A DNA stretch of 64,000 nucleotides from a virus, in IMG/VR virus record IMGVR_UViG_3300040801_001530, positions 356 through 64,355 of that record. One strand, given 5' to 3'. A program made the position numbers and the translations under genes. Every line of letters starts with the position of its first letter. Positions within the stretch are counted from its first letter, which is position 1. This document shows, in pieces, positions 16,236-60,116 of this stretch. The notes beneath the pieces are model-generated. The model worked only from the letters and a program-made list of their open reading frames with translations. It had not been told where the DNA came from and made no database searches.

Positions 16236-16363
16236 TATACTCTCCTGTAAAGTGTTCTTGCTTGACTATGCTTTAATCATAGCATAGCCCCACAGCCTTT
16301 GCAAGTGTTCGCCCCGTCTATCGCCTAACTCTAATCTGATGTTCTAAATATGTTCTAAAAAAC

Positions 16364-16389
16364 AAAAACCCCGCTTTGTGGGCGGGGTT
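16364..16389 (-). terminator. Intrinsic terminator (same family as 22599-22630 and 36452-36478)
   Basis: CCCCGC-N7-GCGGGG stem with T tract. Confidence 0.7.
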
Positions 16390-16424
16390 GTCTGGGCTAT
16401 TCGGTTGTGTGTGGGGATGGGCTG

Positions 16425-17006
16425 CTAGCAAATGCCATAGAGGGCTTCGAAGTCGGTGTCATCATAGGCTGCCACTAACTCTAGCGCTTGCCGTTTGGGG
16501 ATATAGGCGATACCGCCCAATAGCGCGCCGTTATCATCAACCACATAACTAATATCTGTGCAATGAATTACGGCGGTGGTGTTGCCCACATAGACCTCAG
16601 CCTTAATGTGGCCATGATTACTATACCAACGCACCAACGCAGGCACGCCGTAAACTTGGCAATGGGTGGTAGGCTTTGTGAAGTATTCATCCCGCAAAAC
16701 CGATTGCTTAGCCTCGCGTACCTTTTGAGTAAGGGCTTCAATGATGGCTTCGCGCTCTTGGCACAAGTCACCATAAACCTGCCCCCAAAATTGGTTATAG
16801 GCATTGCTTACGTAATCTTCGTTAATCATGTGAGCGTCGGCGTAATCGTCGGTGTACCAAGCAATGTCGCTGCTAACCTTATCCTCAATATCAAGTGTAG
16901 ACAATTCAGCCAAAATCTCGCGGGGGTGGCTAACAAGCCAATTAAATGAGCCATTCTCATCGGTTAGGGTGTAACTGCGGGTTGTGGGGTTATAACGTGC
17001 GCTCAT
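16425..17006 (-). CDS. Hypothetical cassette-borne protein
   Basis: RBS AAGGAG, cassette motif at 17037-17046; C-terminus shared with 36507..36818. Confidence 0.65.
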   Translation of the reverse strand: MSARYNPTTRSYTLTDENGSFNWLVSHPREILAELSTLDIEDKVSSDIAWYTDDYADAHMINEDYVSNAYNQFWGQVYGDLCQEREAIIEALTQKVREAKQSVLRDEYFTKPTTHCQVYGVPALVRWYSNHGHIKAEVYVGNTTAVIHCTDISYVVDDNGALLGGIAYIPKRQALELVAAYDDTDFEALYGIC

Positions 17007-17120
17007 GGTTAGTTCTCCTTATTAGATTGTTCCTCGCTTGACTATGATACTAGCATAACACGGTTAAGGATAAAAAACACCCCCTAAATTTTAGGGGGTG
17101 TCTAACTATACTTTAGCGGC

Positions 17121-17447
17121 TTACGACTCTAGCAACCACACACTACCGATTGCATCCGTCAATGCTTGCCGTGCCTCGGCGGTGTCACTAGGCAATGCAA
17201 ACTTATATGTGTTTGCGCCCCACTCATATTTTGCACTCCAAACAATATTCACGTAATAACCATAGCGCCGCTGCCTGTCGGGTTTTACACGCGGCCCGCT
17301 CGCCGTTTGCACAATTACATAGTCTTCGGGGTTGTACTTGCCGGGGCGATACCACCCCCGCGTAATGAACATCCCGCGCAACCCTGCCGGGCCGTGTTCT
17401 GTTCTCAATTGCGCCGCCACGGGCAGCAAAGATTTGTAATAGTTCAT
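17121..17447 (-). CDS. Hypothetical protein
   Basis: RBS AAGGAG upstream; hairpin downstream. Confidence 0.55.
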   Translation of the reverse strand: MNYYKSLLPVAAQLRTEHGPAGLRGMFITRGWYRPGKYNPEDYVIVQTASGPRVKPDRQRRYGYYVNIVWSAKYEWGANTYKFALPSDTAEARQALTDAIGSVWLLES

Positions 17448-17551
17448 TGTTGGCTATCTCCTTTTTTAACAGACGTTAGATGCATCGTAGCATAACGCTA
17501 AGTTGGTGTCAATTAGAATTTATAAAATTCATAAAGCGTTCTAGCCATGTT

Positions 17552-18001
17552 CTAATGTGTTGTATCCCTCTGCAATGCCATTAGACTATTTAAAAAGTTC
17601 TGGCCACTGTTGCCACCCTCGGCCTTTTTAACTGTAATCCCCCCGCCCGTGTCTTCGGGCGTATGATATGCACGCGGGGGGCCTGATACCGTGTGTGCTG
17701 GTAGAGGCGTGCTAATGCGCTGTCCGCTCTCTAGCATTTGCGCTAACTTATCATTAATTGCGCGTAATAATTCAATAATAGAGTCATCTGTTCCAAGTGA
17801 CGTGTCGCCCCGTACCGTAACAGGTTGCGTAACATTTGTTACGGTACTTGTTACGGTACGCTTGTTACGGTTACTTTTACGCGCTGTACCACCGTGCCGA
17901 AGGCGATACGCTTCTTGCTTGCACGCATCACTACAGTATTTAGCGCGTTTTGTCTCGGCCTCAAATCTAGCACCACATGTGGTGCATTCTACAGTAACCA
18001 T
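17552..18001 (-). CDS. Zinc-finger-containing hypothetical protein
   Basis: CTTC...YCSDACKQEAYR four-Cys motif; RBS GGAGG. Confidence 0.55.
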   Translation of the reverse strand: MVTVECTTCGARFEAETKRAKYCSDACKQEAYRLRHGGTARKSNRNKRTVTSTVTNVTQPVTVRGDTSLGTDDSIIELLRAINDKLAQMLESGQRISTPLPAHTVSGPPRAYHTPEDTGGGITVKKAEGGNSGQNFLNSLMALQRDTTH

Positions 18002-18083
18002 TAGACCCTCCTATTTAGATTATTCCGGTTGACGATAATGGTAAATATGATGGGTGGGGGGGGGGAACCACCCCCCACCGGCA

Positions 18084-18299
18084 CTACGATTCGGATGTTA
18101 GTAAATGCCAAGGATAGCGTTTAATCGCCCACGCCACTAAGGCTTGCTCTACTACGTAACGGTCATGCAATGGCCTATCACGCAGCCATCGGCTTATCAG
18201 CCGAGCACGGTCTTCGTGTGTGTGCACGGCTAGTAATGCATCCCCTAACCCCGCTTCTACGATTACCTCCATCATAGTCGCAACTTTGCCGCTTACCAT
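18084..18299 (-). CDS. Hypothetical protein
   Basis: Overlapping coupling with the upstream ORF. Confidence 0.35.
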   Translation of the reverse strand: MVSGKVATMMEVIVEAGLGDALLAVHTHEDRARLISRWLRDRPLHDRYVVEQALVAWAIKRYPWHLLTSES

Positions 18300-19720: not shown

Positions 19721-21559
19721 TTAGATATGCAGATATTTAGCGCGTTGGCGTGCAATAAACGCTTGTTGGCGGATCTGGATACCGTCGGCGCTCATTAACC
19801 GTTTAGGCCACCATTGCATTAAATGCTTTAGCTCTACGTTAACGGTATCCTCAAACCCGAAGCCCCCATCGCCATACGCCCAATAGACAAACTCATGTGA
19901 GTCTATCTCCGGTACCATCGGGTAATCATAACCCCAATCGGCACCTTCAGCCTCGTAAAAGTCACTGCTATCATAGCGCGGCCCGGCCAACGGGGTGGGG
20001 GGGTGGTCTACATAGTATAGCATAGATTTACCCCGCGTGATAGCTACAAAAATCAGGTTTAGCTCCTCTTGCCGTTGCCACGGCAACATATCAGGATAGT
20101 CTAGCGGCATAGACTCGGTGTCAATGAGTACCACATTAGCAGCCTCTAACCCTTTGGCGCGATGGATAGAGCTAAGCGTAATTCGCGCCTTCGATTTATC
20201 GTTAAAAAGCGCTTTGATTTGTGCCTCTAGCGCTCTGGCATCGGGCGCTTCAAATGCATTGTGGCACGTAATGAGCGCGTTAATCTGGTCGCGATAGGCA
20301 TCTATGATGCTTTGGGATGTATCCGACTCCGCCATGCGCTTTGTCTGCTCAATCTCATAAGCACGGGCGTATGTCTCAAACTTAGCATAATCGAATGTGG
20401 GACTAGTGGCACCAAATGGCGTGCTAGGATAGCGGTGCTTTTGGATAGCGCGGAGGTGCTTTACTAATCCGCTAGCAATATCTTTGCCAAGCACGCGGCA
20501 TGGTATCCGCTTGGCTAGCAACTGATGAGCCAGCGCTAGCATCGGGGCGTTGCGCCGTGACACAATTAGCGTGTTATCTGACCACGTGCCGATATTATCG
20601 AGTAGCCAGGCTTCGGTAATGGTGCGAATACCACCGGCTGCGGCATTAGGCGCGGCTTGCAAGTCAGCTACTAGACGTTTAGCCTCCTCGACATGTGCCA
20701 CGGGGCAACGGTAAGTAATGGGTTGGCTAAACACCTGTGCATCTAATAGTTTAATCAGCTTGTCAAACGCGCCGCTATCGGCACCGGCAAACCCATAAAT
20801 ACTTTGGTTAGGGTCTCCAACAGCGATAACGCGGCCCGTTGGCTTACATGAGCGGCGGAGCACCTCTAGCTTAAGGGTGTCTAAATCCTGCGCCTCGTCT
20901 ACTAGCACAAAATCGTACTGCGGGAATGTAAGGTTATCCGCTACAGGTATATAGAGTTGCTCAATAAAAAGCAGGGGATGCTGCCAATAGCTATCAAGCG
21001 CTAACTTATGCGACTCTTCCACCACAATCGGGGCCATGCGTAGCATATCGGCATGGGTGGGCAAGCCGTAATAGCGCGCCGTAGCGGCTACGGCTTCGGG
21101 CTTATCAAGCGGTGTTAGTGTATATCGCAACATGTCGGCTAATGTCGCCATATGCTTAGCCATCTCGGCCCGCGCCCAATCCTTTTTATAGTGGTGCTGG
21201 TCAAGCAACCGTGTAATAATATCTGATTGCTTAAATCGTTGCACTTGGCTAGCTAGGTTGAATTTTGCTTCGGGATAGCCAGCCCGTAAAACGCTATAGG
21301 CGTGGCTATGGATGGTAGACAGCTTTAGGCGTTTACCCTTAATATGCTCTTTTAGCATATCATCACCCTTAAGCTCGGCTACAATCGAGTTATTAAACGC
21401 AAACATGGCGATAGATGCCTCAGTAGCGCTTGCGATCTGTTCCACCATGCGCTTAAGCAAAAATGACTTACCGGAGCCGGGGCCAGCCATAATGGCCCCG
21501 TGCCCCGTACCGCTGGCCACAAAATCTAGTATGGCCTGCTGATACCGATTTAGCGACAT
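19721..21559 (-). CDS. UvrD/Rep-like superfamily 1 helicase
   Basis: GPGSGKS, VLVDEAQD, AVGDPNQSIYGFAGA, ITYRCP, SSIHRAKGLEA, VAITRGK motifs. Confidence 0.9.
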   Translation of the reverse strand: MSLNRYQQAILDFVASGTGHGAIMAGPGSGKSFLLKRMVEQIASATEASIAMFAFNNSIVAELKGDDMLKEHIKGKRLKLSTIHSHAYSVLRAGYPEAKFNLASQVQRFKQSDIITRLLDQHHYKKDWARAEMAKHMATLADMLRYTLTPLDKPEAVAATARYYGLPTHADMLRMAPIVVEESHKLALDSYWQHPLLFIEQLYIPVADNLTFPQYDFVLVDEAQDLDTLKLEVLRRSCKPTGRVIAVGDPNQSIYGFAGADSGAFDKLIKLLDAQVFSQPITYRCPVAHVEEAKRLVADLQAAPNAAAGGIRTITEAWLLDNIGTWSDNTLIVSRRNAPMLALAHQLLAKRIPCRVLGKDIASGLVKHLRAIQKHRYPSTPFGATSPTFDYAKFETYARAYEIEQTKRMAESDTSQSIIDAYRDQINALITCHNAFEAPDARALEAQIKALFNDKSKARITLSSIHRAKGLEAANVVLIDTESMPLDYPDMLPWQRQEELNLIFVAITRGKSMLYYVDHPPTPLAGPRYDSSDFYEAEGADWGYDYPMVPEIDSHEFVYWAYGDGGFGFEDTVNVELKHLMQWWPKRLMSADGIQIRQQAFIARQRAKYLHI

Positions 21560-21828
21560 TAGTTATCCCCCTCTACGATAATCTCGATAAGTTGGATAGC
21601 CGCTTCCATCTCGTTAACTGCGTGTTCTAATGCATCAATAATGCCTGCATCTAAGTTGTGTGCGATAGCCGCCTTTAGACACGACTTAACTACTGATTTA
21701 GCCGCAATGGTTGCGCCGTGCGTTTGGTCGTATGCTTTAAATGCCACACGGGCGGCCTCTACCGTGGCTTCGATAGCTTGGCTTGTATGCGTATCGGTAA
21801 TCAATTGTTGGATCTGCTTAGCGTCCAA
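21559..21828 (-). CDS. Hypothetical protein
   Basis: First gene after the leftward promoter; coupled to the helicase. Confidence 0.5.
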   Translation of the reverse strand: MDAKQIQQLITDTHTSQAIEATVEAARVAFKAYDQTHGATIAAKSVVKSCLKAAIAHNLDAGIIDALEHAVNEMEAAIQLIEIIVEGDN

Positions 21829-21867
21829 AGTAGACTCCTTTGTTCCATAAATTAACGTGTAGCCTCT

Positions 21868-21896
21868 AGGCTACGCTAATACCCTGTTATTGTCAA
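21868..21896 (-). promoter_or_regulatory. Sigma70-like promoter for the helicase/recombinase operon
   Basis: TTGACA-17 nt-TAGCCT on the minus strand. Confidence 0.55.
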
Positions 21897-21907
21897 TAGA
21901 ACAAAAG

Positions 21908-22021
21908 TTAGAACACCAGATTAGAGTTTTATTTTATCGCCCCGCTGGCTTGCCTGTGGGGCTTTTTTGCGGTATACTTAAAGCATAGTCAATCAAGGAA
22001 CAATCCAACAAGGAGCGCAAG
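21908..22021 (+). repeat. Promoter/leader cassette A (inverted copy at ~37267-37382)
   Basis: Hairpin + TATACT + CATAGTCAA + identical AAGGAACAATCCAACAAGGAGCGCAAGA leader. Confidence 0.8.
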
Positions 22022-22183
22022 ATGTTTAAGTTTGAGATGAACGGTAACGAATACCAGACCGACGAACAAACCATCAAGGTCTTACGGCAGGCTGTGGCAA
22101 TTTACAAGGAGACAGGTAGCGCGAGTATGGTGGCCGCCGTAATGGCATTAGGGCTAAAAGCCGGGCGTATTGTCAAATTGTAG
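22022..22183 (+). CDS. Small hypothetical cassette-borne protein (53 aa, below the ORF-track cutoff)
   Basis: MFKFEMNGNEYQTDEQ... after RBS AAGGAG. Confidence 0.6.
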   Translation: MFKFEMNGNEYQTDEQTIKVLRQAVAIYKETGSASMVAAVMALGLKAGRIVKL

Positions 22184-22200
22184 TCCCGCCCACAGCCCGA

Positions 22201-22313
22201 CACCCCCTAAAAACTAGGGGGTGTATTTTACCCCAAAACGCGGTATACTAGTATCATAGTCAAGGGAGGCAACAAGCCCCCCGATAACCAACAAGGAGAG
22301 CTAAAATGAGTAA
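22201..22313 (+). repeat. Promoter/leader cassette B (113 bp; inverted copy at 36811-36923)
   Basis: Hand alignment gives 4 mismatches in 113 bp. Confidence 0.9.
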
Positions 22314-22575
22314 CCAAATGATTAACGAGATTAAAAAAGCGGCGCAACAAAACGCGGTGTCAAAAATCCAAAGCCTGACAGGCTACACTATTTACCACAT
22401 GGCCGACAACAGCGCGATCGCTATCAAAAATATGACTGTGAAGGTTCACCCGGCCAACGCGCAAGGCACCTGGGTTGAGTTGAGCGGCCTAACGCACAGC
22501 ATGGTCAAGCACTATCAAGCGAACACCCGTCAATGGTGCACGGCATTGGGCAATGGTCACACTGTCATCAGCTAG
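22306..22575 (+). CDS. Hypothetical cassette-borne protein
   Basis: RBS AAGGAG, cassette promoter, downstream terminator. Confidence 0.65.
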   Translation: MSNQMINEIKKAAQQNAVSKIQSLTGYTIYHMADNSAIAIKNMTVKVHPANAQGTWVELSGLTHSMVKHYQANTRQWCTALGNGHTVIS

Positions 22576-22598
22576 CTCCACACAACCTAAGTAACCCC

Positions 22599-22630
22599 AA
22601 AAACCCCGCCCACAAAGCGGGGTTTTTGTT
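22599..22630 (+). terminator. Intrinsic terminator
   Basis: CCCCGC-CCACAAA-GCGGGG-TTTTT. Confidence 0.75.
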
Positions 22631-22804
22631 TGCCTAATGCTAGCGCGTTGGGGGAGGGCGGGGAATAAAAAAGCCCCAGGCTAGTCAGACCTAGGGCGGG
22701 GCACAGCAGCGGCAACCTTTAGGCGTTGCAACCATTCTACACACCACTCATGCAACAGGAGATGAGTACATCATACCATGCTTGTTATTCGCTGTCAACA
22801 CCTG

Positions 22805-23119
22805 CTAATTGTTGGAATAACGACCACATAACAACTGTGTTGGCGTTTTGGGCGCGGCAAGGGCTTGCCGCTCAGCATGGCTATAGAGCGCGTCTAGCGC
22901 GTTGGTTGCAATATCCGCCGTTGCCATCGCGCCGAGATACCAACCAACACCAAAAGCCTTAGCGGGGTCATCCTCTACCATTTTTAGGGCCTGTACACGC
23001 ATAAGCGGATTAGGATCCTTATCCTCCCGTCCTGACATCCCTACAGCAACAAGCGCAAGCAAGAGGCGCTCCTCGGTTGTCAATCCTGGCATATCTGTAG
23101 CGTTTAGTCTGTTATTCAT
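22805..23119 (-). CDS. Hypothetical protein
   Basis: Overlaps the methylase stop codon. Confidence 0.45.
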   Translation of the reverse strand: MNNRLNATDMPGLTTEERLLLALVAVGMSGREDKDPNPLMRVQALKMVEDDPAKAFGVGWYLGAMATADIATNALDALYSHAERQALAAPKTPTQLLCGRYSNN

Positions 23120-24033
23120 TCTATATCCTTTAGCCTCTTAAATAGAGGCAATTCTTCTTGATAATCACTTATCCATAAAACCTCGGTGCGTTGCTGATTA
23201 GCTAAAACATTGCCCGCACCTTGTAGGTTACTAGCACGTGTTCGCCCTGATACATTGGTAGTAACGCTAAACTCTATGCGTTGCCACCCTGCGGCCTCTA
23301 GAGGCTCATAAATCGCGTTTGGATAGCCCGACACTACGCTATGCCCTTTAAGCGCTAGAATCGCCTCTACTAGTGCCGTGTGTGCCTCTATGGTCATGTT
23401 GTGGTGGTAGAACTTCTGTGTACTATCCCATGTAGTGGGTACATACGGCGGGTCGATATAAAATAATGTGTCGGGCGTATCATAGCGTGCTAGGATTTTT
23501 TGCCATGTATCGTGCTCAATTTGCACACGCTGTAAGCGCTGGTGGATAGCTGGCAATCGCTCAACCGCTTTTAACCATTTTGAGTTTGCGCTTGACATCC
23601 CCGCATGAGACTCAGCCACGCTAAACGGATAGCCTCCGCCCCATTTGCCCCCGAAGGACTGATACGCGACATAATACCATCTTATCACACGTTCTATAAT
23701 ATCGCAATCCTCTAGGACGTTGCCTTCGGCATATGCCACTTTTGCCTCGGTGCGATATTCGTTATAGAGTTGGCGTGATACCGGCAACAGGCTAACGCGG
23801 CGCTCAAACTCACTATAGAGCACCGGATCAGATAGCACTTTAAATAGCTCATATAAGCGGCTATCTAGGTCGTTATACGTCTCAATCGGAGCTGGGGGCT
23901 TAGCCAACATGATGCTAGCCCCGCCGCCAAACGGCTCGACATAATGCCGATGGGGGATGTCTACTAAGTAAGGCATGATTTTTGTAACCATCAACCCTTT
24001 ACCGCCTACCCACGTAATCGGGCTTCTAGGCAT
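23116..24033 (-). CDS. DNA adenine methyltransferase (Dam/D12 class)
   Basis: WVGGKG, YVEPFGGGAS, NDLD and FYIDPPY motifs; ATG at 24033. Confidence 0.9.
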   Translation of the reverse strand: MPRSPITWVGGKGLMVTKIMPYLVDIPHRHYVEPFGGGASIMLAKPPAPIETYNDLDSRLYELFKVLSDPVLYSEFERRVSLLPVSRQLYNEYRTEAKVAYAEGNVLEDCDIIERVIRWYYVAYQSFGGKWGGGYPFSVAESHAGMSSANSKWLKAVERLPAIHQRLQRVQIEHDTWQKILARYDTPDTLFYIDPPYVPTTWDSTQKFYHHNMTIEAHTALVEAILALKGHSVVSGYPNAIYEPLEAAGWQRIEFSVTTNVSGRTRASNLQGAGNVLANQQRTEVLWISDYQEELPLFKRLKDIE

Positions 24034-25418
24034 CACACGCCCTCCGGTGCTATATCGTAATACCATTGCTCCACGCTAGAGTAATACACAGGCACCTTAC
24101 GCGGGTACCCGTTGCGGTTATGGGTAATCGCCAGGATACGTACGCCCGACTCGGCGGGGTCAAACTCTACGGTTTTATTCCGCCCGTCTTCGTCTTTGAT
24201 AACCATATCTCTAGTATACCCTCCGGCCTCATTTTGCATCTTGACAACCACTTCCGACCATTGTTCTATTTTTTGTGACTCATACACTGAGCCATCTACG
24301 TTCAGTTGTGCGGCTGTTAATATTGCTACTTGCATATCTCTAGCAATATCCTTAATGCCTAGCATAACATCCCCCACTACAGCATAGCGATTTTGGCCCC
24401 GTATCCGCTGATCGGGATGCATAATTTGAGTGTAGTCGATAACTACCAAGTCAACCGTGCCATGCTCGTTAGTGACGCGCTTTAGGCTAGCGCGTATGTC
24501 ACTAGGGGTAGCACTGTCTCTATCATAGATAATATGCATCTTTTTAGCAACCTCGGCGTAGCTTTTGGCTAGTGTGATGTCCGCCGAAGACGCCGGGTCT
24601 AGCTTATCAAGTACAGGCTGTTGCAAGGTTGTCTCCATTTGCAAAATACGCCTAAACATTTGCTGGCTTGTCATCTCCCGTGTAACTACTAACACCCGCT
24701 TACCCATTCGTGCAGCGTTAATAGCCCATTGCATCATTACGCGGGTCTTACCCCACTTTGTAACTGCCCCAATTACAAACAATTGCGCCGGTTGGATACC
24801 ACCGCCAACCGCTCTATCAAAATCTTTTAGTCCCATCCCGATAAATTCGGGGCTACCATTCTCTAGCCACTCAACCAGCGCCTGCGCCTCCTCGGCGTGG
24901 GTAGTATAGGTGGCTCTAATATCCGTAGATGCGATGTCATTAACCGCTAAGCTAGCCTCCTTAAATACCTCGTTAATATCGCGCTCTTTATCATTTGCTA
25001 ATTTTGCGATAGCGCTAGCCGCCTCTAATAGCTTGCGCCGTAACGCCATACGGTGCACGATATGACCATAAACCTCTGCGTGTAGCGCGGTGGGGTTAGT
25101 ATTAATAAGTAGTACTAGATAGTTAGAACCACCTATCTCATCTAGTGCGGTAAGCGCGGCATTGGAGCCTGGCATGGTCTTTAGCTCCTCAGCTACGGAT
25201 ATATTATCAATATCCTCGCCACGGCTATGCAGGCGTTGCATAGCATTAAAAATAATGCCATGCTTTACTAAAAAAAACGAGTCAGGGCTTAAAAATTCTA
25301 AGCGCTCAATTGGCGGCTTGCTATCTAGCGTGCCGATTAGCACCGCGCCTAATACAGCCCGCTCGGCCTCTATGCTATGCGGCCCTGTAAAAACAACGGC
25401 TTGGTTGTTATCATCCAT
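24033..25418 (-). CDS. DnaB-like replicative helicase
   Basis: PHSIEAERAVLGAVL N-domain, Walker A GAVTKWGKT, LVVIDYTQ, AAQLN, HNRNG. Confidence 0.85.
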   Translation of the reverse strand: MDDNNQAVVFTGPHSIEAERAVLGAVLIGTLDSKPPIERLEFLSPDSFFLVKHGIIFNAMQRLHSRGEDIDNISVAEELKTMPGSNAALTALDEIGGSNYLVLLINTNPTALHAEVYGHIVHRMALRRKLLEAASAIAKLANDKERDINEVFKEASLAVNDIASTDIRATYTTHAEEAQALVEWLENGSPEFIGMGLKDFDRAVGGGIQPAQLFVIGAVTKWGKTRVMMQWAINAARMGKRVLVVTREMTSQQMFRRILQMETTLQQPVLDKLDPASSADITLAKSYAEVAKKMHIIYDRDSATPSDIRASLKRVTNEHGTVDLVVIDYTQIMHPDQRIRGQNRYAVVGDVMLGIKDIARDMQVAILTAAQLNVDGSVYESQKIEQWSEVVVKMQNEAGGYTRDMVIKDEDGRNKTVEFDPAESGVRILAITHNRNGYPRKVPVYYSSVEQWYYDIAPEGV

Positions 25419-26478
25419 TATTATTGCCTCCAACGGGAACCTTTACCCATTTACCATCTACGAATTTGTCCACCAGCACGGCGGGTGCGGGGGCTTCTAG
25501 TGCCTCTAGTGGCTTGCTCTCTCCTGACATCGCGCCGCCGTTTAGGCTCATAAAACCTTGCTCAATCTCATCTAGCCTCGCTTCGGTTTGCTCATTATAC
25601 CACATGATAAAATTGCCCCACTGATTGAGCACCTCGGATGGCTTAGGCGGGCGATAAGCGCCGGTCTTATCACGCCATACATAGGCTACACTATCCCGGC
25701 TAGCGGCCTTAGCCCACCAATAATAGAAGGCCCACAACTGGCGGGTAGGGCGTTTGGCGTCCCAAGACTCTAACGCGGTTAGTTTGTTAAGTTCTTTTTT
25801 GACATACCCACGGCTTACAGTTAGCATATCATCTGTGGATAGACGCGGGTAACAGATACGCCCTAATAACTCATACGCCGGGCTAATCGTGGCCTTTTTG
25901 CGTTTACGTTTAGGCTTTGGCATATAGGGTGTTAGGTCAACCATTGTCCTGCAATCGTCTGGATAAAGATATAGGGTAGGGGGTGCGGCAGGCGTAGCCG
26001 CCGCTTCTTTTAGTTTAGTATTATTATCTTTGTATTCTTCGGGTATCACAGATGATACCCCCCCCCTATCATCCCTGATAGGGGTATCACAGATGATACC
26101 CCCCCCATTATCAAGATCGTAAAGGCGTTTGCACTCGTACATTAAACCGCTAAAATCATAGTGGCTTGTTTTGCCCTGCGTACCGCGCCGTGTGACCACC
26201 ACCATTTTTTGCCCTCGGCTGTTTTGTTTAGCCTCTAGGCTTTGTACATATCGCCTAACCGTCTGTTTTGTGACACCCATCATGGCAGCGATACTATTAA
26301 GCGATGGTTCCGGGCCACGGCTGTTAGGGGTATCGTAGTGGAAGCTAATAATATGTTCCATAACAGTATACTCTTGATAGGTTATGCCAGCACGGCTATA
26401 GTACCAACGTATAATATTAGGCATCATAGTAAAACCGGCGTCTAATACACCGTTGCCCCAGGTATGTGATACTCTCAT
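25411..26478 (-). CDS. Replication initiator with N-terminal winged HTH (lambda O/DnaD-like)
   Basis: FTMMPN...PSLNSIAAMMGVTKQTVRRYVQSL HTH; directly upstream of DnaB; internal iterons. Confidence 0.7.
   Translation of the reverse strand: MRVSHTWGNGVLDAGFTMMPNIIRWYYSRAGITYQEYTVMEHIISFHYDTPNSRGPEPSLNSIAAMMGVTKQTVRRYVQSLEAKQNSRGQKMVVVTRRGTQGKTSHYDFSGLMYECKRLYDLDNGGGIICDTPIRDDRGGVSSVIPEEYKDNNTKLKEAAATPAAPPTLYLYPDDCRTMVDLTPYMPKPKRKRKKATISPAYELLGRICYPRLSTDDMLTVSRGYVKKELNKLTALESWDAKRPTRQLWAFYYWWAKAASRDSVAYVWRDKTGAYRPPKPSEVLNQWGNFIMWYNEQTEARLDEIEQGFMSLNGGAMSGESKPLEALEAPAPAVLVDKFVDGKWVKVPVGGNNNG
26005..26106. promoter_or_regulatory. Putative replication origin (iterons + AT-rich tract)
   Basis: Three TATCA-N4-TGATA palindromes (26044, 26067, 26085) next to an AT-rich stretch at 26005-26040 inside the initiator gene. 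Confidence 0.6.
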
Positions 26479-26492
26479 CTTATGCCCCTTGT

Positions 26493-27038
26493 TTAAATAC
26501 CACGGCGCAAGCGCTGGGCTTGTTTGTCTTCATAGTGTGCAATAATTGCACTGTTGGGGATCTCTTTAAACGGTATGTATTTAAAAGACGCCCGCGCTCG
26601 ACCGTCTTTGTTACGGTTCGCATACCATCGCGCCCGCCCCTGTGCGGTTGCTAACACTAGCGCGGGCCAATCCACAATGACAAAGTGGTCAAAATGTTCT
26701 CTATTACTATCCTCATAGGCACAAAAATAGATTTGTGGTGCTAGGCTAAACCAGTCGCCAGGCTCCCCTGTATGTTGGTTTTGCTGGTACTCTACCGTTA
26801 ACGTTTTATATTTTGCATACCGATTACTTAGGAACTTCTCCTGCGCATATAATACCATGCCCCCCGGCATAGTCAGGCGTACATCTACGCCAAACTCTCT
26901 ATCAAGCACAGCTAGGGGGCTATCGTCGTCAAATCTGGTAATGGCCTGCGCGTCAAGAATCAGTCTATAGATGTCATCCGCCGCATAGCGGAGCCTTAGT
27001 TCCTGTTGTCGTCGGGGGTCATTGCTAAAGGTGCTCAA
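26493..27038 (-). CDS. Hypothetical protein, possible PD-(D/E)xK nuclease fold
   Basis: GVDVRL...AQEKF spacing resembles D...ExK. Confidence 0.35.
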   Translation of the reverse strand: MSTFSNDPRRQQELRLRYAADDIYRLILDAQAITRFDDDSPLAVLDREFGVDVRLTMPGGMVLYAQEKFLSNRYAKYKTLTVEYQQNQHTGEPGDWFSLAPQIYFCAYEDSNREHFDHFVIVDWPALVLATAQGRARWYANRNKDGRARASFKYIPFKEIPNSAIIAHYEDKQAQRLRRGI

Positions 27039-27546
27039 TGATATTACTCTCCTCTACCCATACTACCTTAGTAGTAGCATGTTTAGTGGCTTCGTCGTAT
27101 ACGTAGCCCATATACAATACCCGTCGCCGTGCCAAATCGATTATATAGTAGCGGCTCGTCTGTACGGTGGTGATCTTGTGTTGGTTAACAGCCGCCGGTG
27201 GCCAGTAGGCATAGGCATCTTTAAGCACACCCCGCGCCCTTACAATAGTCTTAGGCGCTAGCAGCTTAGGTGGTTGCTCAAACAATACGACGGTATGCGG
27301 GTCTTCTGTTGTATCCGCCTCCCAATATGTATCGGTATAGTCTATAAGCGGATTAATACCGGCCTCCGCTAGTTTTTGGCGGATATATTCGGCACCGTGT
27401 TCCATCGATATAGCCTCGCCCGTGTAGCTGTTTTGTCCCGGCACAACATCGATGCCATTAAATGTGCTATATGATAGCATCGGACGTTCTTTATGATAAG
27501 TCTGTGGGGGCACCGCCGCCCCTGTGGTTGGTTCGTATAGTTGCAT
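27025..27546 (-). CDS. Hypothetical protein
   Basis: RBS AGGAG; first gene of the leftward replication operon. Confidence 0.5.
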   Translation of the reverse strand: MQLYEPTTGAAVPPQTYHKERPMLSYSTFNGIDVVPGQNSYTGEAISMEHGAEYIRQKLAEAGINPLIDYTDTYWEADTTEDPHTVVLFEQPPKLLAPKTIVRARGVLKDAYAYWPPAAVNQHKITTVQTSRYYIIDLARRRVLYMGYVYDEATKHATTKVVWVEESNIIEHL

Positions 27547-27621
27547 GTTTATCTCCTAGCTAGTTTGTAGGCGCAATAGAATATCCCTAGCCTACCACAG
27601 CCCTGCGGCCCCTGTCAAGCC

Positions 27622-27650
27622 TTGACAGCAAGCTGCCTAGTGGTTATCAT
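27622..27650 (+). promoter_or_regulatory. Sigma70 promoter (back-to-back with a leftward TTGACA at 27613-27618)
   Basis: TTGACA-17 nt-TATCAT. Confidence 0.7.
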
Positions 27651-27679
27651 AGAGCTAAACAATAACGAAGGTAATAACG

Positions 27680-28099
27680 ATGCATAAAACTTTTTTAGAA
27701 CGCGATACGCTTAATGAATTGGCACAAGCACAACCGGGCAAACCGCGCTTCGATGCATTGCACAACTGGTTAGAGGCTAATCGGGGGAGAGCACGGCGCA
27801 ATAACATATACACCATAACATGCCTTTTGTGTTTTGACGTGAAGCATTGCCCTACAGATGCCACCATGACGCACATTATAGCCAATGCCTATAGCGCCGA
27901 TCCGTATAACATGAACGGTGAATTATTTGCCAGAGAGGCACCCAGCCCTTACAGTACACTTAGCCGATACGATACCGACGTACCGGACAATCCACTCAAT
28001 GCAGAGTATGTTTATAAACTTACACGTGATGAGTTAGCATGGTTTTACTGGCAGTTTAAGCCGTATTTTTACAGAGGTATTACATGGATTATTACATAG
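27680..28099 (+). CDS. Hypothetical protein
   Basis: Downstream of the promoter; RBS AAGG. Confidence 0.45.
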   Translation: MHKTFLERDTLNELAQAQPGKPRFDALHNWLEANRGRARRNNIYTITCLLCFDVKHCPTDATMTHIIANAYSADPYNMNGELFAREAPSPYSTLSRYDTDVPDNPLNAEYVYKLTRDELAWFYWQFKPYFYRGITWIIT

Positions 28100-28140
28100 T
28101 TGCATAGTGATGTATAATATTAATAGGGGAGTATTGTATA

Positions 28141-28812
28141 ATGCCTTTATCGTATAACGCTAACACCGGCTCTTATAGCCAGCGTTGGCATTCAGACCAT
28201 GATAGGAATGTAATAGAGCGTGATGTTGTTAGGAGCGCTATACATTTAGTTGATAGCGTAGCTTGTGACCCGGAGCTTAGCTTTGCTAATACCGACGGTA
28301 TGACTTATACAGTAGACAGGCCGGTCGAGCGTGAAGCCTTGCGCGGTTTGCGGCGTGGTAATAAGTCGCCTGAAGACTTGCACGGCAACGTATACAGGCC
28401 ATTTACCGTACTGTTTGCGGAGAGGGCGTTAGAGTGTGCGCTAGTACTAGCCGATAATAGCGGTAACGATAGCTATAGCCTTACTTATGTACCACCGCTT
28501 GATGAGTACGGCGTGGGCTACCAGCTAACTAGCCGTGTACCTTACCGCGATCCTGCTTATATCGCTGCCGCTATGCTGTATGATGGCTATGATTTTGCGC
28601 CTAGTGTGGTTGCCGAGGCACAGCGCGTCGTCAACCTAGCCAAGGGCAAAAAACGGTTTAAAACACACCATACAAGCCTATTAGTTAGCATACTCTCTAA
28701 CAACTCCGGTAGTATTATTGATATAGCGCGGTCTAATGGCATTGAGATAGATCGTATTAATGAGTGGCTAGCGACGTTTAGTACTATTCGTGGCATACTA
28801 TCCGGTAAATAG
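28141..28812 (+). CDS. Hypothetical protein
   Basis: RBS GGGGAG; 223 aa. Confidence 0.5.
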   Translation: MPLSYNANTGSYSQRWHSDHDRNVIERDVVRSAIHLVDSVACDPELSFANTDGMTYTVDRPVEREALRGLRRGNKSPEDLHGNVYRPFTVLFAERALECALVLADNSGNDSYSLTYVPPLDEYGVGYQLTSRVPYRDPAYIAAAMLYDGYDFAPSVVAEAQRVVNLAKGKKRFKTHHTSLLVSILSNNSGSIIDIARSNGIEIDRINEWLATFSTIRGILSGK

Positions 28813-28824
28813 AGAGGCAGTTTA

Positions 28825-29817
28825 ATGACTGTTGCTAAGTACGACACTAAGGATATTGTAGAGTGGGTTACTATCCCCGCCAATGCCGCATTAGGTTATG
28901 ATAGTTTTGAGTTAGCGATTAATAAGGCGGCGCGTGACTGCGCTACGGCGTCGTTACGTGCGGGGCAACCCATCCCCGATGCCCCTATTAAGGTGGCTCT
29001 TGAATTGCTTAAGCCGGGTGATGTTGCCCTAGACGTGGGCGCTTTTGTGGGCGCTTTTGCGCTGCGCGCCGCCGCTAAGGGGTGCGGGGTAATCGCGTTT
29101 GAACCGGATCCACTTAATGCTATGTTGTTACGTACTAGTATCGAGCGTAACGGCTGGGAAGAGTATGTTAGCGTGATAGAGGCCGCAGCCGATTATGTCG
29201 AAGGCCGGTCTATAATGTATGATACAGGCCCGTTTGGATATATTGGCCCAACAACCGACACTAGCGGCGTGCGTACTGTTGCGATAGATGATATATTAAC
29301 GCGGTTTACAACATACCGTACAAACAACCGTGCAACGCCAAAAGTTATCAAGATTGATGTTGAAGGCGGCGAGTTAAATGTATTACGTGGTATGAGTAAC
29401 CTGCTAAATAGCCCATTAGCGCCGGTTGTCATATGGGAAGGTAATACCTTGACCTTGCGCCGTGCTGAGATAAATCCTATGGTTGTTAAGAGACATTTGT
29501 CAGAATTTGGTTATACTAGTGATATGCTATACGGTGACAAGCGGGTGTTTGTAGAGGTGACGGAGCCGCAAATTGTGGTTAATGTGGATTATGTCAGTCT
29601 CCGCTATTGGCATGTGCTCTTATATTCTGATGTGTTGCCAGAACGCAAGCACGGTTACACGCGGGAGCAAATGATTGAGCGTGTAGCTAAAGATATACAG
29701 GCCGCCGGGGAGGGTGCATTACGGATGCTATACATCGCACGCAATGATATGCCCCCCTGGCTATTGTTTGCACCTGAAGTGGTTGATGCGTTTGATAAAC
29801 GTAAGGGGGATATATAA
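28825..29817 (+). CDS. FkbM-family SAM-dependent methyltransferase
   Basis: ALDVGAFVG, VIAFEPDP, VIKIDVEGGELNVLRG. Confidence 0.85.
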   Translation: MTVAKYDTKDIVEWVTIPANAALGYDSFELAINKAARDCATASLRAGQPIPDAPIKVALELLKPGDVALDVGAFVGAFALRAAAKGCGVIAFEPDPLNAMLLRTSIERNGWEEYVSVIEAAADYVEGRSIMYDTGPFGYIGPTTDTSGVRTVAIDDILTRFTTYRTNNRATPKVIKIDVEGGELNVLRGMSNLLNSPLAPVVIWEGNTLTLRRAEINPMVVKRHLSEFGYTSDMLYGDKRVFVEVTEPQIVVNVDYVSLRYWHVLLYSDVLPERKHGYTREQMIERVAKDIQAAGEGALRMLYIARNDMPPWLLFAPEVVDAFDKRKGDI

Positions 29818-29819
29818 TA

Positions 29820-33233: not shown

Positions 33234-33261
33234 TTAAAATTAATATTATTGAGGGGTAGAG

Positions 33262-36351: not shown

Positions 36352-36451
36352 GTGGCGGAGTAATAGTAATTCTTAATTATAAACATGTGTGGGCGCTATA
36401 AGGCTAACGATATTAGACACTAACATATAAAACAGCGCCAGCTAGGCAAAC

Positions 36452-41335: not shown

Positions 41336-41369
41336 AGCCTACCCTTCTATGTGATTGGTGTATATTACA

Positions 41370-41829: not shown

Positions 41830-41835
41830 ACACTA

Positions 41836-41864
41836 AGTGTATCATGCATCACGTCTCTTGTCAA
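41836..41864 (-). promoter_or_regulatory. Sigma70 promoter driving array-omegaRNA-iscB
   Basis: TTGACA-17 nt-TACACT; predicted start ~41829-41830, at the first repeat; overlaps a divergent TTGTCA-17-TAAACT (41858-41886). Confidence 0.8.
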
Positions 41865-56254: not shown

Positions 56255-56572
56255 CTACAGGCATTTATAGGGCGATCGAACGCCTTCCACTAAAAACCGT
56301 GCGTTACCGATTTTTGAGTAGCCAAACATTCGGCGGGCGCAGGCCCGCGCTGCGGTCTCGCTTTTGTAAACTGATGCCGTGCCATAGAATGGGCCAAACC
56401 AGTTTTTATATTGATATTGCCCAGGTCGGTAGGTAGCTACACCAAATACTACCTTGCCGGTACGTATATCCTGCACGCGCCAGACATTTGGTTGTTGCGG
56501 CGTTGCGTGCAAATTATAAGTCATGTGTGTAAGGTTCTCGACTTGGATAGTTTGGCCATTTGCGTTCTTCAT
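56255..56572 (-). CDS. Hypothetical protein
   Basis: ATG 56572 after RBS AAGGAG. Confidence 0.55.
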   Translation of the reverse strand: MKNANGQTIQVENLTHMTYNLHATPQQPNVWRVQDIRTGKVVFGVATYRPGQYQYKNWFGPFYGTASVYKSETAARACARRMFGYSKIGNARFLVEGVRSPYKCL

Positions 56573-56636
56573 GTTTAGTTCTCCTTGTGTGTTTTGGGGG
56601 CTAGGCTTTATTGCCCGCCCCCTTTTTATTATTTGG

Positions 56637-56894: not shown

Positions 56895-56903
56895 GAGTTT
56901 AAC

Positions 56904-56983
56904 TCCTCGTTAGATTATTCCTTGCTTGACTATGATACTAGTATAGCACGTTTAGGGGGCTTTGTGCCCCCTAATTTTTAGGG
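56904..56983 (-). repeat. Promoter/leader cassette C, inverted copy of ~38894-38975
   Basis: Near-identical by hand alignment. Confidence 0.85.
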
Positions 56984-57562
56984 GGTGCGTGTATCACCAG
57001 CAAAACTAAATGGCTCTAAGCCTGCGGGGCAGCGGGCGGCGGGTTGGAATACGGTAATAATACAGCCCGGCCCCCATGTCCCCCTGTAACACAATTCTTG
57101 GTATCGCCAAGCATCTGCCAGCACTTCGCGCCCGTATAGCGTCATATCGATAAGCGCCGATTTGCCACTAGTACCAATGACCTTAACCGTAATACGGCTA
57201 TTGTCGGCATAGATTAGCGTGTAGATGTGCGCCGCGCGCCCGGTGTTGTAATAGTTGGCTAACCGCGCATAAACCACCCGCTTAGCCTTATCAAATAACC
57301 TCGCAACCTGTTTTTTAACGCCGCGTTCTATAACGTGTTGTGTCTCAAAATGATACACGTACACAGTATAGCACAATTCGTTATAGGCGTCGTCAAATGT
57401 GGCGAATGTCTTACTAGGCTGAATGTTAGCATGATGCATAAGCCATTGGTTGCCATCGCGCTCGATATAGTAAACATGGCCTTCGTAGCATGTAAAGCGC
57501 CATTTATTAAGCCATTGCCCATATTTATCTTGCATCCTACCGTGCTCTTTGATAAGTGGCAT
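56978..57562 (-). CDS. Hypothetical cassette-borne protein
   Basis: Cassette motif 57593-57602; RBS GAGGAG. Confidence 0.6.
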   Translation of the reverse strand: MPLIKEHGRMQDKYGQWLNKWRFTCYEGHVYYIERDGNQWLMHHANIQPSKTFATFDDAYNELCYTVYVYHFETQHVIERGVKKQVARLFDKAKRVVYARLANYYNTGRAAHIYTLIYADNSRITVKVIGTSGKSALIDMTLYGREVLADAWRYQELCYRGTWGPGCIITVFQPAARCPAGLEPFSFAGDTRTP

Positions 57563-57682
57563 GTTTTTAGCTCCTCGTTGGGTTGATTTTTACTTGACTA
57601 TGATACTAGTATAGCAAAACCCCGCACATTATACAAGCGCGGGGTTATTTTTTAATCTGGTGTTCTATTCGTGTTCTAACGC

Positions 57683-58093: not shown

Positions 58094-58094
58094 T

Positions 58095-58466
58095 TTAATC
58101 TACACCGTGGATAATACTACTACTAAAGCCACCGTCTTTGTCTATCATATCATAGCCGATTGAGCCATCAGGCTGCGCGGTTACATCCAACGTGCGCAAA
58201 TCGCCACACCAATGCCCCACCTCGGCAAGATGCAACAACGCGCTAGATGCACTATCAAAGTTATAGAGTGTGACGCGGCACAAACTCACGGTATCAGTAA
58301 CGACCCACGGCTTTAGACCGTCTTCGATTAAATCGTGCTCATAGTAAATATGCATAGAGTTCTCCAAACGTTGCCGGTATGCAAAAGAGTAACGCGGGGG
58401 CCTCCCGGTATTATCCCCCACGCTAAAAGATGCGTCTAATATATCATGGCATATCATGTGTGTCAA
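58095..58466 (-). CDS. Hypothetical protein
   Basis: 123 aa ORF. Confidence 0.45.
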   Translation of the reverse strand: MTHMICHDILDASFSVGDNTGRPPRYSFAYRQRLENSMHIYYEHDLIEDGLKPWVVTDTVSLCRVTLYNFDSASSALLHLAEVGHWCGDLRTLDVTAQPDGSIGYDMIDKDGGFSSSIIHGVD

Positions 58467-58517
58467 GTCAGCATGTTCTAATCAATAGAACATAAGATGA
58501 GTATTTTAGCTAAACGC

Positions 58518-58546
58518 TTGCACGCGATGGCAATATATGATATACT
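58518..58546 (+). promoter_or_regulatory. Sigma70-like promoter
   Basis: TTGCAC-17 nt-TATACT. Confidence 0.6.
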
Positions 58547-58606
58547 TTTAGCATCGAATGAATACCCTCCCCGCGCGGGGGGGCAGGCGAATAAAGGCGA
58601 ATAAAA

Positions 58607-59134
58607 ATGTACAACCAGACAACAAAAAGTTACACCGCAAAAGATGGCAGCGACAACTGGATCGCAGAACCCAAACCGGAACCAGCTATCACGTTAAAGC
58701 AAATGAGTATCGTGCTCAATGCTTATGAAGAAGAATTTGAGCGGATAGTAGGTTTACTAGTTGCAGTGTTACAAAATAAAGCTGCTACACTTGTAGACTG
58801 CTCCCCCAAGGAATATGCAAGCATGTTCCTTAAGGGTATGATTAGCAAAGACGCAGGTGCCCGCGCTAAAGCATTGAAGTACAACAGCGTCTTTGTGCAC
58901 GCACGTTATGGTGTGCTGCACAAAGGGCAGCCAACATATGGTATGCCCATTCCAGCGGGGAAGACCCCGCATTGTGCACAGATCAACACAACCGGCCTAC
59001 GTGTAGATATTGAGGCAAAATCCACAGGCAATATATATCACCGAGCTTATTGTTACAGAGTAGCAGTAACAAAGCCCGATACCATCGCCCGTGCTATATG
59101 CTTTAATAAACTCCCACATAAGCATTGTGGCTAG
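58607..59134 (+). CDS. Hypothetical protein, probably the 5' half of a gene interrupted at ~59068 (3' half ~59695-60001, same frame)
   Basis: N-terminus YNQTTKSYT...NW resembles 16425..17006; its end overlaps an antisense foreign segment. Confidence 0.4.
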   Translation: MYNQTTKSYTAKDGSDNWIAEPKPEPAITLKQMSIVLNAYEEEFERIVGLLVAVLQNKAATLVDCSPKEYASMFLKGMISKDAGARAKALKYNSVFVHARYGVLHKGQPTYGMPIPAGKTPHCAQINTTGLRVDIEAKSTGNIYHRAYCYRVAVTKPDTIARAICFNKLPHKHCG

Positions 59135-59380
59135 ATATTGTGGGAGTGTTAGTTCGCAAATGACAGAAGACAATTTTGTCGGTACAGGGAATTGTGCAAC
59201 AATCGCATTAACTTGCTCTTGCGCCAACCCTGGCACTTGCGCACGCTCAGTAAGTTGTTTACGACGATAAAACGCTGTCACGTTGGAGTTATTCTTTTGT
59301 GCTGGGTCATGGTGGGATACTGGTGTAATAAATGTAGCAACGAATGTAATACGGCGTGATTCTGGTGTAATATGATACAT
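59068..59380 (-). pseudogene. Possible N-terminal fragment of a type IV CRISPR Csf2/Cas7-like RAMP protein
   Basis: RITFVATFITPVSHHDP...FYRRKQL...EFIKAYSTGDGIGL recalls type IV Cas7-like N-termini; RBS AAGGAGG; from memory, unverified. Confidence 0.35.
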
Positions 59381-59695
59381 TATGCCTCCTTTTGGGCAAT
59401 AAATAATGCTAATGTAAACTCATCAGTTAGGCGATATGGCACAATAATACGCTCGTATTGGATTAATTCCATTAACGTTAGGTTATGTCCCTTAATCTTA
59501 TTAGCTAATAGAAGATTATCAGCAATAACCACCTTGCTTATTCCCATGCTATAAATCTGCTCTACTTTATCCAATACATCAAGGAGCTTGGTATGGTCAA
59601 TAGTTAATACGCGCTCTATATTACCATCAACTACAAGAATTAATGCTGTGACAAATAGTACATCGGTTTTTGTGCGCTGGACACTCAGCAGCACG
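59380..59695 (-). pseudogene. Possible C-terminal fragment of a type IV Csf1 (Cas8-like) protein
   Basis: VEQIYSMGISK...YERIIVPYRLTDEFTLALFIAQKEA recalls Csf1 C-termini; coupled to the Csf2-like fragment; unverified. Confidence 0.35.
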
Positions 59696-60116
59696 GCGCA
59701 AATGGAAGAGTGGGTAGCTACTGGCGTATGGCCCGATGGCACTTCGATTATCAAAGTACCGCTTGATGAGAATTTGCGCTGGTATCTGCTGCGCTACTTC
59801 CAAAACCATGACGAACCAAAAAGAACAGGTATGTTTGCGCCTGCAAGCAGCTTTTATATTGGCGTGTTTGACAAAGAGCCATCAGCACTGGACGCACGCA
59901 AATACCTTATGCGCATCCTGAACGCATGTGAGTGTTGCAAAGAGTGCGAAGGCGAACAGTACAAGCCAGGTGGTGCGTGCGACACCACCTATCTGTTCTA
60001 AATTAGAACACCAGATTAGAGCTTAAAATTATTATGGCCCCACACTTGACCGTGGGGCTTTTTTGCTTTATACTTGTATCATAGTCAAGCAAGCAAACAT
60101 CTACGGAGAGAATAAA

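Follow-up and report, generated by a model that had tools for sequence, protein, structure and literature searches.

Probable PeSL-like promoter/terminator cassettes ahead of eleven orphan genes in an uncultivated, siphovirus-like phage

Introduction

PeSLs are composite regulatory elements of T4-type myoviruses, in which a stem-loop terminator stands just upstream of a sigma70-type promoter and the whole element ends in the Shine-Dalgarno sequence and ATG of an ORFan, that is, an orphan open reading frame (ORF). Their pattern in T4-like phages includes crossovers between the -10 box and the ATG, as well as half-elements (PMC2839356, PMC4122927). On the evolutionary side, they are marked by insertions, deletions, or replacements between closely related phages and by mini-circles from recombination between copies. 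Here, we describe eleven sites in a stretch of viral DNA of 64,000 nucleotides (nt), positions 356 to 64,355 of the IMG/VR record IMGVR_UViG_3300040801_001530, which we call the window and whose own numbering is used throughout. Each of these sites places the same short box at the predicted transcription start of a different orphan gene. We consider it probable that they are composite promoter/terminator cassettes, read by the host RNA polymerase, spread by homologous recombination, and PeSL-like in their working. To our knowledge, T4-like phages have until now been the only ones in which composite promoter-terminator cassettes were described as a platform for gene shuffling.

Several other described systems share a feature or two with these sites. 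Morons, following the work of Juhala and Hendrix, are said to be autonomous promoter-gene-terminator units lying between the functional modules of lambdoid and other phages; they share no single promoter family, and their base composition is usually deviant. Among the class I activators and displaced UP elements of Escherichia coli, CRP is positioned at -61.5, -71.5, and -82.5. The strong early promoters of phage T5 reportedly share sequence in the transcribed region that affects promoter clearance, as attributed to Gentz and Bujard and to Kammerer et al. in 1986. Lastly, the stoperators of Cluster A mycobacteriophages are short, asymmetric sites present in many copies and oriented by transcription, which makes them a precedent for orientation-dependent signals of this kind (PMC9283540).

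The source record is a 64,579-bp virus sequence, nearly all of it inside the window, from a microbial mat metagenome, and represents an uncultivated tailed phage with an estimated completeness of 82%.

The cassette family

The box CATAGTCAA(G) occurs 11 times in the window, each time with a different orphan gene downstream: at 16261, 17037, 36860, 37296, 37862, 56925, and 57593 on the minus strand, and at 21984, 22255, 38943, and 60080 on the plus strand. The cassettes are named after these positions (c16261 and so on). Ten copies are exact, the one at 21984 being the variant CATAGTCAAT. When one mismatch is allowed, CATAGTCAAG is found 14 times, where 3.4 matches would be expected; none of 100 shuffled sequences reached 14. 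The motif-search check suggested by the first-pass annotation of this DNA, run as a profile built from the 11 copies, recovers exactly those 11 at E < 1e-6, with the rest within noise. The remaining one-mismatch matches, at 22500 and 26868, lie inside genes and were set aside as chance.

That annotation had listed the motif at the same eleven places, 5 nt after a -10 box and ahead of a strong ribosome-binding site and a short ORF, and this description is borne out in full. The -10 box (TATACT, TATGCT, or TATGAT) precedes the start-site box by exactly 5 nt in 11/11 copies, and all 11 continue into an unstructured, purine-rich leader of 34-50 nt that ends in a Shine-Dalgarno sequence of the AGGAG/AAGGAG type and leads into an ORF of 53-194 amino acids (aa) on the same strand as the box. 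Upstream, a hairpin of -17 to -23.5 kcal/mol is present in nine of the copies; the other two, c16261 and c37862, lack a strong hairpin and have a plain -35 hexamer. The cassettes form six blocks located at module junctions and strand switches. Behind every cargo ORF stands either a further terminator or the hairpin belonging to the next cassette, and the units therefore appear to be insulated and monocistronic.

Two classes of cassettes

According to their upstream parts, the cassettes fall into class A (n = 6) and class B (n = 5), the latter with two subtypes.

16236-16357, minus: c16261, class A; element 16329-16357, -35 TTGCAA 16299-16304, -10 TATGAT 16276-16281, box 16261-16270, 34-nt leader
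17007-17103, minus: c17037, class B1; hairpin 17075-17103, TGt-TATGCT 17052-17057, box 17037-17046, 39-nt leader
21897-22021, plus: c21984, class A; element 21897-21926, terminator hairpin with loop -35 TTGCCT 21950-21955, -10 21973-21978, box variant CATAGTCAAT 21984-21993
22199-22305, plus: c22255, class B1; hairpin 22200-22224, -10 22244-22249, box 22255-22264, 50-nt leader with a small internal hairpin
36819-36924, minus: c36860, class B1; inverted copy of c22255, 96% identical
37266-37391, minus: c37296, class A; element 37363-37391, hairpin 37327-37350, loop -35 TTGCCT 37334-37339, -10 37311-37316, box 37296-37305; 92% inverted copy of c21984
37837-37959, minus: c37862, class A without hairpin; element 37931-37959, -35 TTGACA 37901-37906 (18-bp spacer), TGa-TATGCT 37877-37882, box 37862-37871
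38891-38980, plus: c38943, class B2; overlapping hairpins 38894-38925 (T-run terminator on the opposite strand), TGc-TATACT 38932-38937, box 38943-38952
56895-56983, minus: c56925, class B2; inverted copy of c38943, 80/81 identical
57563-57678, minus: c57593, class A; element 57650-57678 (variant ending AGATTAAAA), loop -35 TTGTAT 57631-57636, TGc-TATACT 57608-57613, box 57593-57602; 13 nt from element to -35
59995-60116, plus: c60080, class A; element 59995-60021, terminator hairpin 60036-60059, loop -35 TTGACC 60046-60051, -10 60069-60074, box 60080-60089

What distinguishes class A is an upstream element, TAGAAC-N5-TAGAACAYYAGATTAGAG, with 6 matches in the window against 0.35 expected. All six members have a TTGnnn -35 hexamer, which is separated from the -10 box by 18 bp in c37862 and by 17 bp in the other five. 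In those same five the hexamer lies in the loop of the hairpin, whose 3' stem and T run make up the 17-bp spacer, and terminator and promoter therefore seem to be superimposed. The first-pass annotation had seen a GC hairpin where a -35 would be; the hairpin itself is there in the nine copies mentioned, and what does not hold is that it stands in for the -35, given the TTGnnn within five class-A loops. In class B the hairpin is of the ACACCCCCTA...TAGGGGGTGT type or a double form related to it; the -35 is no more than weak, and three of the five copies have a TGn-extended -10.

From this arrangement we infer promoter and terminator activity, and a working order can be proposed. At the 5' end, in class A only, would stand the upstream element. 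A GC-rich hairpin with its T run would then stop transcription arriving from upstream, and a sigma70-type promoter would follow, its -35 in the hairpin loop (five class-A copies) or plain at 18 bp (c37862), while in class B it would rest on the TGn-extended -10 or on the -10 alone. Past a discriminator of fixed 5-nt length would come the invariant box C/ATAGTCAA(G), with its A as the predicted start, and the unstructured, purine-rich leader with AAGGAG and the start codon at its end. One orphan ORF per cassette, ended by a terminator, would complete an insulated single-gene unit, and all of the mRNAs would begin with AUAGUCAA. Homologous recombination between copies would spread the family and keep its members alike, and would place unrelated ORFs between the same 5' and 3' modules; the phage's own genes for an Erf-like annealing protein, helicases, and a resolvase-like nuclease would provide the means for such spreading.

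Compared with the published PeSL anatomy, the hexamer spacing of about 17 bp is found throughout class A (6/6), and class B offers a -10 with TGn in 3/5 copies and a weak -35; the upstream stem-loop is found in 9/11 copies and the ending in a Shine-Dalgarno sequence and the start codon of a small ORFan in 11/11. The likeness extends to the many copies clustered between conserved modules, to a homology that breaks off somewhere from the -10 box to the ATG, to the insulated ORFan units, and to the degraded half-copies. The cassettes differ from PeSLs in the -35 placed in the terminator loop (5/6 class A), the invariant 9-nt start box, a separate phased upstream element, and a 3' module that reaches into coding sequence. 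Moreover, PeSLs belong to T4-like myoviruses, whereas the phage described here is siphovirus-like, judging from its tape-measure, HK97-type capsid, and portal genes, and T4 core genes were not found in it. The resemblance to PeSLs put forward in the first-pass annotation thus stands as regards anatomy, with these cassettes as an analogue rather than a member of the family. As in morons, promoter and terminator surround a single gene; unlike morons, the promoters are of one family and the base composition is not deviant, cargo genes having a GC content of 0.497 against 0.489 for the other genes, with a similar codon score.

Module borders and exchange of cargo

Three pairs of cassettes are near-identical over their whole frames, much as the first reading of the sequence had reported: 21904-22022 and 37267-37385 (119 nt, 92% identity), 22200-22316 and 36808-36924 (117 nt, 96%), and 38894-38974 and 56903-56983 (81 nt, 99%). 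Identity per 20-nt window is 15-20/20 inside the cassette and falls to 2-8/20, the random level, at both edges, the downstream edge coinciding with the ribosome site or the first cargo codons. The claim that unlike cargo lies behind these frames is upheld as well, as the cargo proteins are mutually unrelated except for a 17-aa tail shared by 16425-17006 and 36507-36818.

This tail belongs to a second shared part, a 3' terminator module (X) common to three class-B units, c17037, c22255, and c36860.

16360-16424, minus: module X, copy 1; terminator 16367-16389 and conserved flank, running into the last 17 codons of 16425-17006
22576-22636, plus: module X, copy 2; terminator only, after cargo 22306-22575
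36443-36506, minus: module X, copy 3; terminator 36455-36478, running into the last 17 codons of 36507-36818

The last 17 codons are thus also common to the cargo of c17037 and c36860, and three otherwise unrelated ORFs, of 193, 89, and 103 aa, lie between common 5' and 3' flanks. The phage genome itself shows the signature of modular exchange, with identity dropping from about 95% to the random level precisely where the cargo begins and ends. Such common flanks around different ORFs are, within one genome, the equivalent of an insertion, deletion, or replacement between closely related phages. The window also contains decayed copies.

15768-15839, plus: relic; TATAGTCAAG at 15805-15814, wrong -10 spacing, two convergent terminators around it, no ORF
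18002-18083, minus: diverged twelfth cassette before 17552-18001; leader 82% like that of c38943, box decayed to TTATCGTCAAC, G/C-tract hairpin upstream
56573-56636, minus: leader-only relic ahead of ORF 56255-56572 (105 aa)

The first of these had been taken for a weak copy of the cassette; the motif is indeed present, and its wrong -10 spacing and missing ORF make it a relic.

Discrete modules with sharp borders, hairpins, and inverted pairs at strand-switch points could also be expected of small mobile or structural DNA without a role in transcription, such as MITE- or REP-like elements, recombinase sites, or replication or packaging signals. We regard this as very improbable, since terminal inverted repeats and target duplications are lacking, the modules keep a strict relation to the -10, Shine-Dalgarno sequence, and start codon, their orientation is always that of the gene, and no transposase or integrase was found apart from a separate IscB locus.

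It is rather unlikely, in our view, that the cassettes are static promoters which arose by duplication and were kept alike through gene conversion, with no exchange of cargo and with the ORFs never having moved, in which case the likeness to PeSLs would be architectural only. Such an origin would agree with the GC content and codon usage of the cargo, which are those of the rest of the genome, with the lack of a relative that could show turnover, and with the thin read data: in read-derived Logan contigs over 21500-39500, at a depth of about 3, there were no joints that would mark alternative junctions, and the single loose end corresponds to the sister cassette. What it does not accommodate are borders exact to the start codon, the shared 3' module, and the 17 shared codons behind two ORFs, which need recombination at the cassettes.

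Several observations weigh against recombining, host-read cassettes, even though we prefer this explanation. The composition and codon use of the cargo, equal to those of the genome, give no sign of recent import, and two distant relatives (L096 and L099) have no repeated cassettes, these contigs having too little in common with the phage for arguments from synteny. On the promoter side, c22255 and c36860 have neither a good -35 nor TGn and are weak by E. coli rules, the T-run terminator of class B2 is oriented opposite to the cassette, and the use of the sigma70 consensus for the host of this phage is an assumption. The one metatranscriptome of the source sample did not contain the phage. Finally, nine invariant bases at the start exceed the needs of a promoter and are left unexplained by the model.

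An upstream element shared with other phages

The exact 18-mer TAGAACACCAGATTAGAG of the class-A element is found on 68 contigs from sediment, wetland, groundwater, and soil metagenomes, on 9 IMG/VR contigs, and on 3 small contigs of metagenome-assembled genomes, which were binned to three phyla and are the sole matches in 185,579 bacterial species genomes. Cultured phages gave no match beyond a chance one in a 5' untranslated region of Bacillus phage G, and a literature text search for the letters of the motif returned nothing relevant. About 60 of the matches have one architecture, consisting of the 18-mer, a variable spacer, a near-consensus cTTGACA-16/17-TATAAT promoter, and a small ORF, often with a further TAGAAC 8-12 nt upstream of the 18-mer. 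The spacers are unconserved, the first downstream genes belong to no common family, and the contigs share almost no protein with the phage or with each other. GC content in six element-bearing genomes runs from 49 to 63%, and no protein family is common to all six. Copy number is one in each of two complete genomes (G002 and G004), four on a 79-kb contig, and six in the phage studied here.

The distance from element to -35 in 39 representative promoters is 4, 13-14, 23-25, or 34-36 nt, with one exception at 18. A period of 10.4 bp fits best; its resultant length is 0.90, whereas 5000 random sets reach 0.56 at most, and the six copies of the phage (13, 23, 23, 24, 24, and 24 nt) keep the same phase. 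Use of one helix face across unrelated genomes, with unconserved spacers, argues for an activator-type or polymerase-contacting site rather than recent horizontal transfer. These steps of whole helical turns, from one to four, recall the class I type sites of E. coli; the element differs from these in matching no site that could be named and in occurring on phage contigs rather than in bacterial genomes. We tentatively propose, with somewhat less than even confidence, that TAGAACA-N4-ATTAGAG is the site of a trans-acting factor contacting RNA polymerase from one helix face, that it marks the promoters from which small islands of orphan genes are read in many uncultivated phages unrelated to one another, and that here the promoter has been amplified, together with a second, invariant signal at the transcription start, into PeSL-like cassettes. 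A search for a binding protein found no family common to the six genomes or the 68 loci.

The phased element also bears on whether the stretch of about 21 bp, TATACTAGTATCATAGTCAAG, could serve as promoter for an RNA polymerase or sigma-like factor that the phage itself encodes, instead of for the host enzyme. Its length and its conservation through +1 resemble promoters of single-subunit polymerases, and the genome is only 82% complete by estimate. Such promoters go with a polymerase gene in the same genome; the scan of about 55 proteins over 64.6 kb turned up no RNA polymerase, and no sigma factor or integrase either. With TTGnnn hexamers at sigma70 spacing in all of class A, a -10 box that varies between three forms, and the same upstream element ahead of near-consensus TTGACA-17-TATAAT in about 40 other phages, we give a phage-specific transcription factor of this sort hardly any weight.

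Pairs of TAGAAC/GTTCTA abut the -35 of the box-less, divergent consensus promoters P21828 (minus), P37998 (plus), and P58438 (minus), at 21829-21990, 37931-37998, and 58438-58496, and a TAGAAC pair also precedes the promoter 17512-17484 (minus). The element 37931-37959 of c37862 is common to the divergent promoter 37970-37998 (plus). From the pairs at divergent promoters, the same sites seem to serve both directions. Other uncultivated phages have several variants of the element (TAGAACATTACATTAGAG and similar) 0.5-0.7 kb apart (L247, 5321-7591; G005, 32923, 51716, and 51795), so that tandem arrays of element, promoter, and small ORF are not unique to this phage.

The start-site box

The start-site box reads ATAGTCAAG, and its nine bases CATAGTCAA are invariant across the 11 copies, amid a -10 box, discriminator sequence, and leader that all vary. 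For the 39 promoters of other phages with the same upstream element, position 6 after the -10 is Y in 38 and position 7 is A in 35. This Y-A step lends weight to the earlier prediction of one 5' end for all of the transcripts and to the A of CATAG as that end. No conservation extends past it in those promoters, which argues against a general need of the polymerase for the remainder of the box. The same box, in the same place, recurs in an otherwise unrelated contig family (L225/L257), where 20 of 21 bases from the -10 to +9 are identical to c16261 and the spacers around the box are not conserved. In wider searches for close relatives, a 15-mer and a degenerate 14-base pattern gave only single chance matches in IMG/VR, and the 21-mer had zero matches in metagenome and genome collections.

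Taken together, the invariance, the fixed 5-nt discriminator, and the recurrence in L225/L257 suggest a function of the box's own. It could be a working part that adds to the promoter, namely, an asymmetric operator or an RNA tag at +1 to +9 for one phage or host factor, recognised by a monomeric repressor as mycobacteriophage stoperators are, acting as a start-proximal pause signal, or bound by an RNA-binding protein or nuclease working on the common 5' end AUAGUCAAG; such a factor would switch all eleven orphan genes jointly. This is a possibility that we find doubtful on balance. Apart from the nine consecutive invariant columns and the recurrence just described, it is favoured by a discriminator fixed in length and variable in sequence, by a box orientation that follows the gene in 11/11 copies, and by the fact that other element-bearing phages conserve only the Y-A start. 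Against it, no repressor, helix-turn-helix regulator, or RNA-binding protein was recognised among the roughly 55 proteins scanned, many small ORFs having matched nothing at all, gene conversion among the copies could partly explain the invariance, and the diverged cassette at 18002-18083 still fronts a gene without the box. A search for structure or complementarity involving the box likewise found none.

Among described sites, stoperators come closest, the 11/11 co-orientation of the box recalling theirs. They may lie anywhere in short intergenic gaps and have a known immunity repressor, whereas the box is fixed at +1 and no repressor gene was recognised. Conservation downstream of +1 in T5 promoters is loose; here, nine bases are invariant. 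Judged by inspection only, other candidates did not fit: N4-type hairpin promoters and an antisense promoter using TTGACT in sequence or geometry, promoters of extracytoplasmic function sigma factors because GAAC ... GTCAA stand at the wrong distance, and boxes for CtsR, LexA (GAAC-N4-GTTC or GAAC-N7-GAAC), IHF, Fis, CRP, and regulators of the PhoB/OmpR type.

A candidate small RNA was noted at 22665-22798 (minus), where TTGACA-17-TGgTATGAT, the region's best match to sigma70, stands about 100 nt ahead of a strong terminator. The predicted 5' end of this RNA (about 22665-22763), AUCUCCUGUUG, is of the anti-Shine-Dalgarno kind and complementary to the CAACA(A)GGAGA of the leaders. Its duplex energies with the leaders are not consistently better than those of shuffled controls, and alternatively the candidate could mirror a plus-strand leader that has decayed.

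Cargo of the cassettes

15840-16235, minus: cargo of c16261, 131 aa
16425-17006, minus: cargo of c17037, 193 aa; singleton; last 17 aa shared with 36507-36818
22022-22183, plus: cargo of c21984, 53 aa
22306-22575, plus: cargo of c22255, 89 aa
36507-36818, minus: cargo of c36860, 103 aa
36933-37265, minus: cargo of c37296, 110 aa
37378-37836, minus: cargo of c37862, 152 aa; weak language-model lead only, to an NTF2/SnoaL-like fold, with a fairly high score
38981-39220, plus: cargo of c38943, 79 aa
56637-56894, minus: cargo of c56925, 85 aa; followed by 56255-56572 (105 aa) behind the leader-only relic
56978-57562, minus: cargo of c57593, 194 aa; singleton
60117-60281, plus: cargo of c60080, 54 aa; weakest coding score

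A search of ten cargo proteins against Pfam and PHROGs gave no match, and in the protein atlas their scores stayed short of high confidence and the models were poor. Two are singletons, one of 193 aa among 5.8 billion proteins and one of 194 aa among 1.84 billion cluster representatives. The first-pass annotation had suggested early host-takeover or anti-defence genes as cargo, for which the failure of any cargo protein to match Pfam or PHROGs leaves no support; nothing supports or excludes such roles. As to timing, c60080 sits directly before the capsid gene, its cargo being followed by a terminator and the promoter of that gene, and an early class is therefore not a given. The c60080 unit is closed by an inverted copy of its own hairpin, at 60303-60332.

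The phage and its genome

The phage encodes a tape-measure protein, a large terminase (TerL), a portal fused to a head-morphogenesis domain, and an HK97-type capsid fusion. The other recognised genes include helicases, among them a DnaB-like one, the annealing protein and nuclease named above, and methyltransferases, and the two largest unassigned proteins have PKD and discoidin domains, typical of tail proteins. No close relative was found by megablast against cultured phages or by a TerL peptide scan of IMG/VR, and the best TerL relative among 5.8 billion proteins is 56% identical.

The portal (33262-36351) and capsid (60432-63281) genes are separated by 24 kb, and each end of this interval has cassette blocks; distant relatives have terminase, portal, two small genes, and capsid in one uninterrupted run. 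An inversion of 18 kb between the 99% identical inverted cassettes 38894-38974 and 56903-56983 is conceivable. Homopolymer G or C tracts of 8-11 bases, at 18050-18075, 26041-26106, 36497-36505, and 60334-60344, adjoin cassettes or sit in a duplicated 25-mer and are possible slippage sites.

Beyond the cassettes, a tRNA cluster at 39363-39922 (minus) comprises Met-CAT, Leu-TAG, and Leu-TAA, with a consensus promoter nearby at 40002-39974. A fourth ARAGORN call there, with the anticodon CTA of the amber-suppressor type, was not confirmed by Rfam, whose scan returned tRNAs only. A 451-aa protein of the HNH endonuclease family (39980-41864, minus) adjoins three 37-nt direct repeats at 41659-41829, and the two spacers between these had no match in the window, cassettes included. 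The gene 44419-45231 has tandem repeats at 44521-44916 with a 12/42/54-nt period, and its C-terminal part is an HNH-like domain present in five of the six element-bearing genomes.

Concluding remarks

Two features go beyond what has been described: the terminator-embedded -35 with an invariant start box, and the helically phased element common to many unrelated uncultivated phages. The same solution in a phage unrelated to T4 suggests a general way in which phages may add or swap orphan genes while leaving their neighbours undisturbed, in a form that is here more compact, with the -35 in the terminator loop and shared 5' and 3' modules. If the proposal for the upstream element is true, it would represent a cross-lineage phage regulatory code described nowhere so far; the element, which should have a protein partner, would offer a testable handle on how orphan genes are switched in uncultivated phages. 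The invariant box, in turn, would define eleven co-regulated orphan genes as a candidate list for functional screens.

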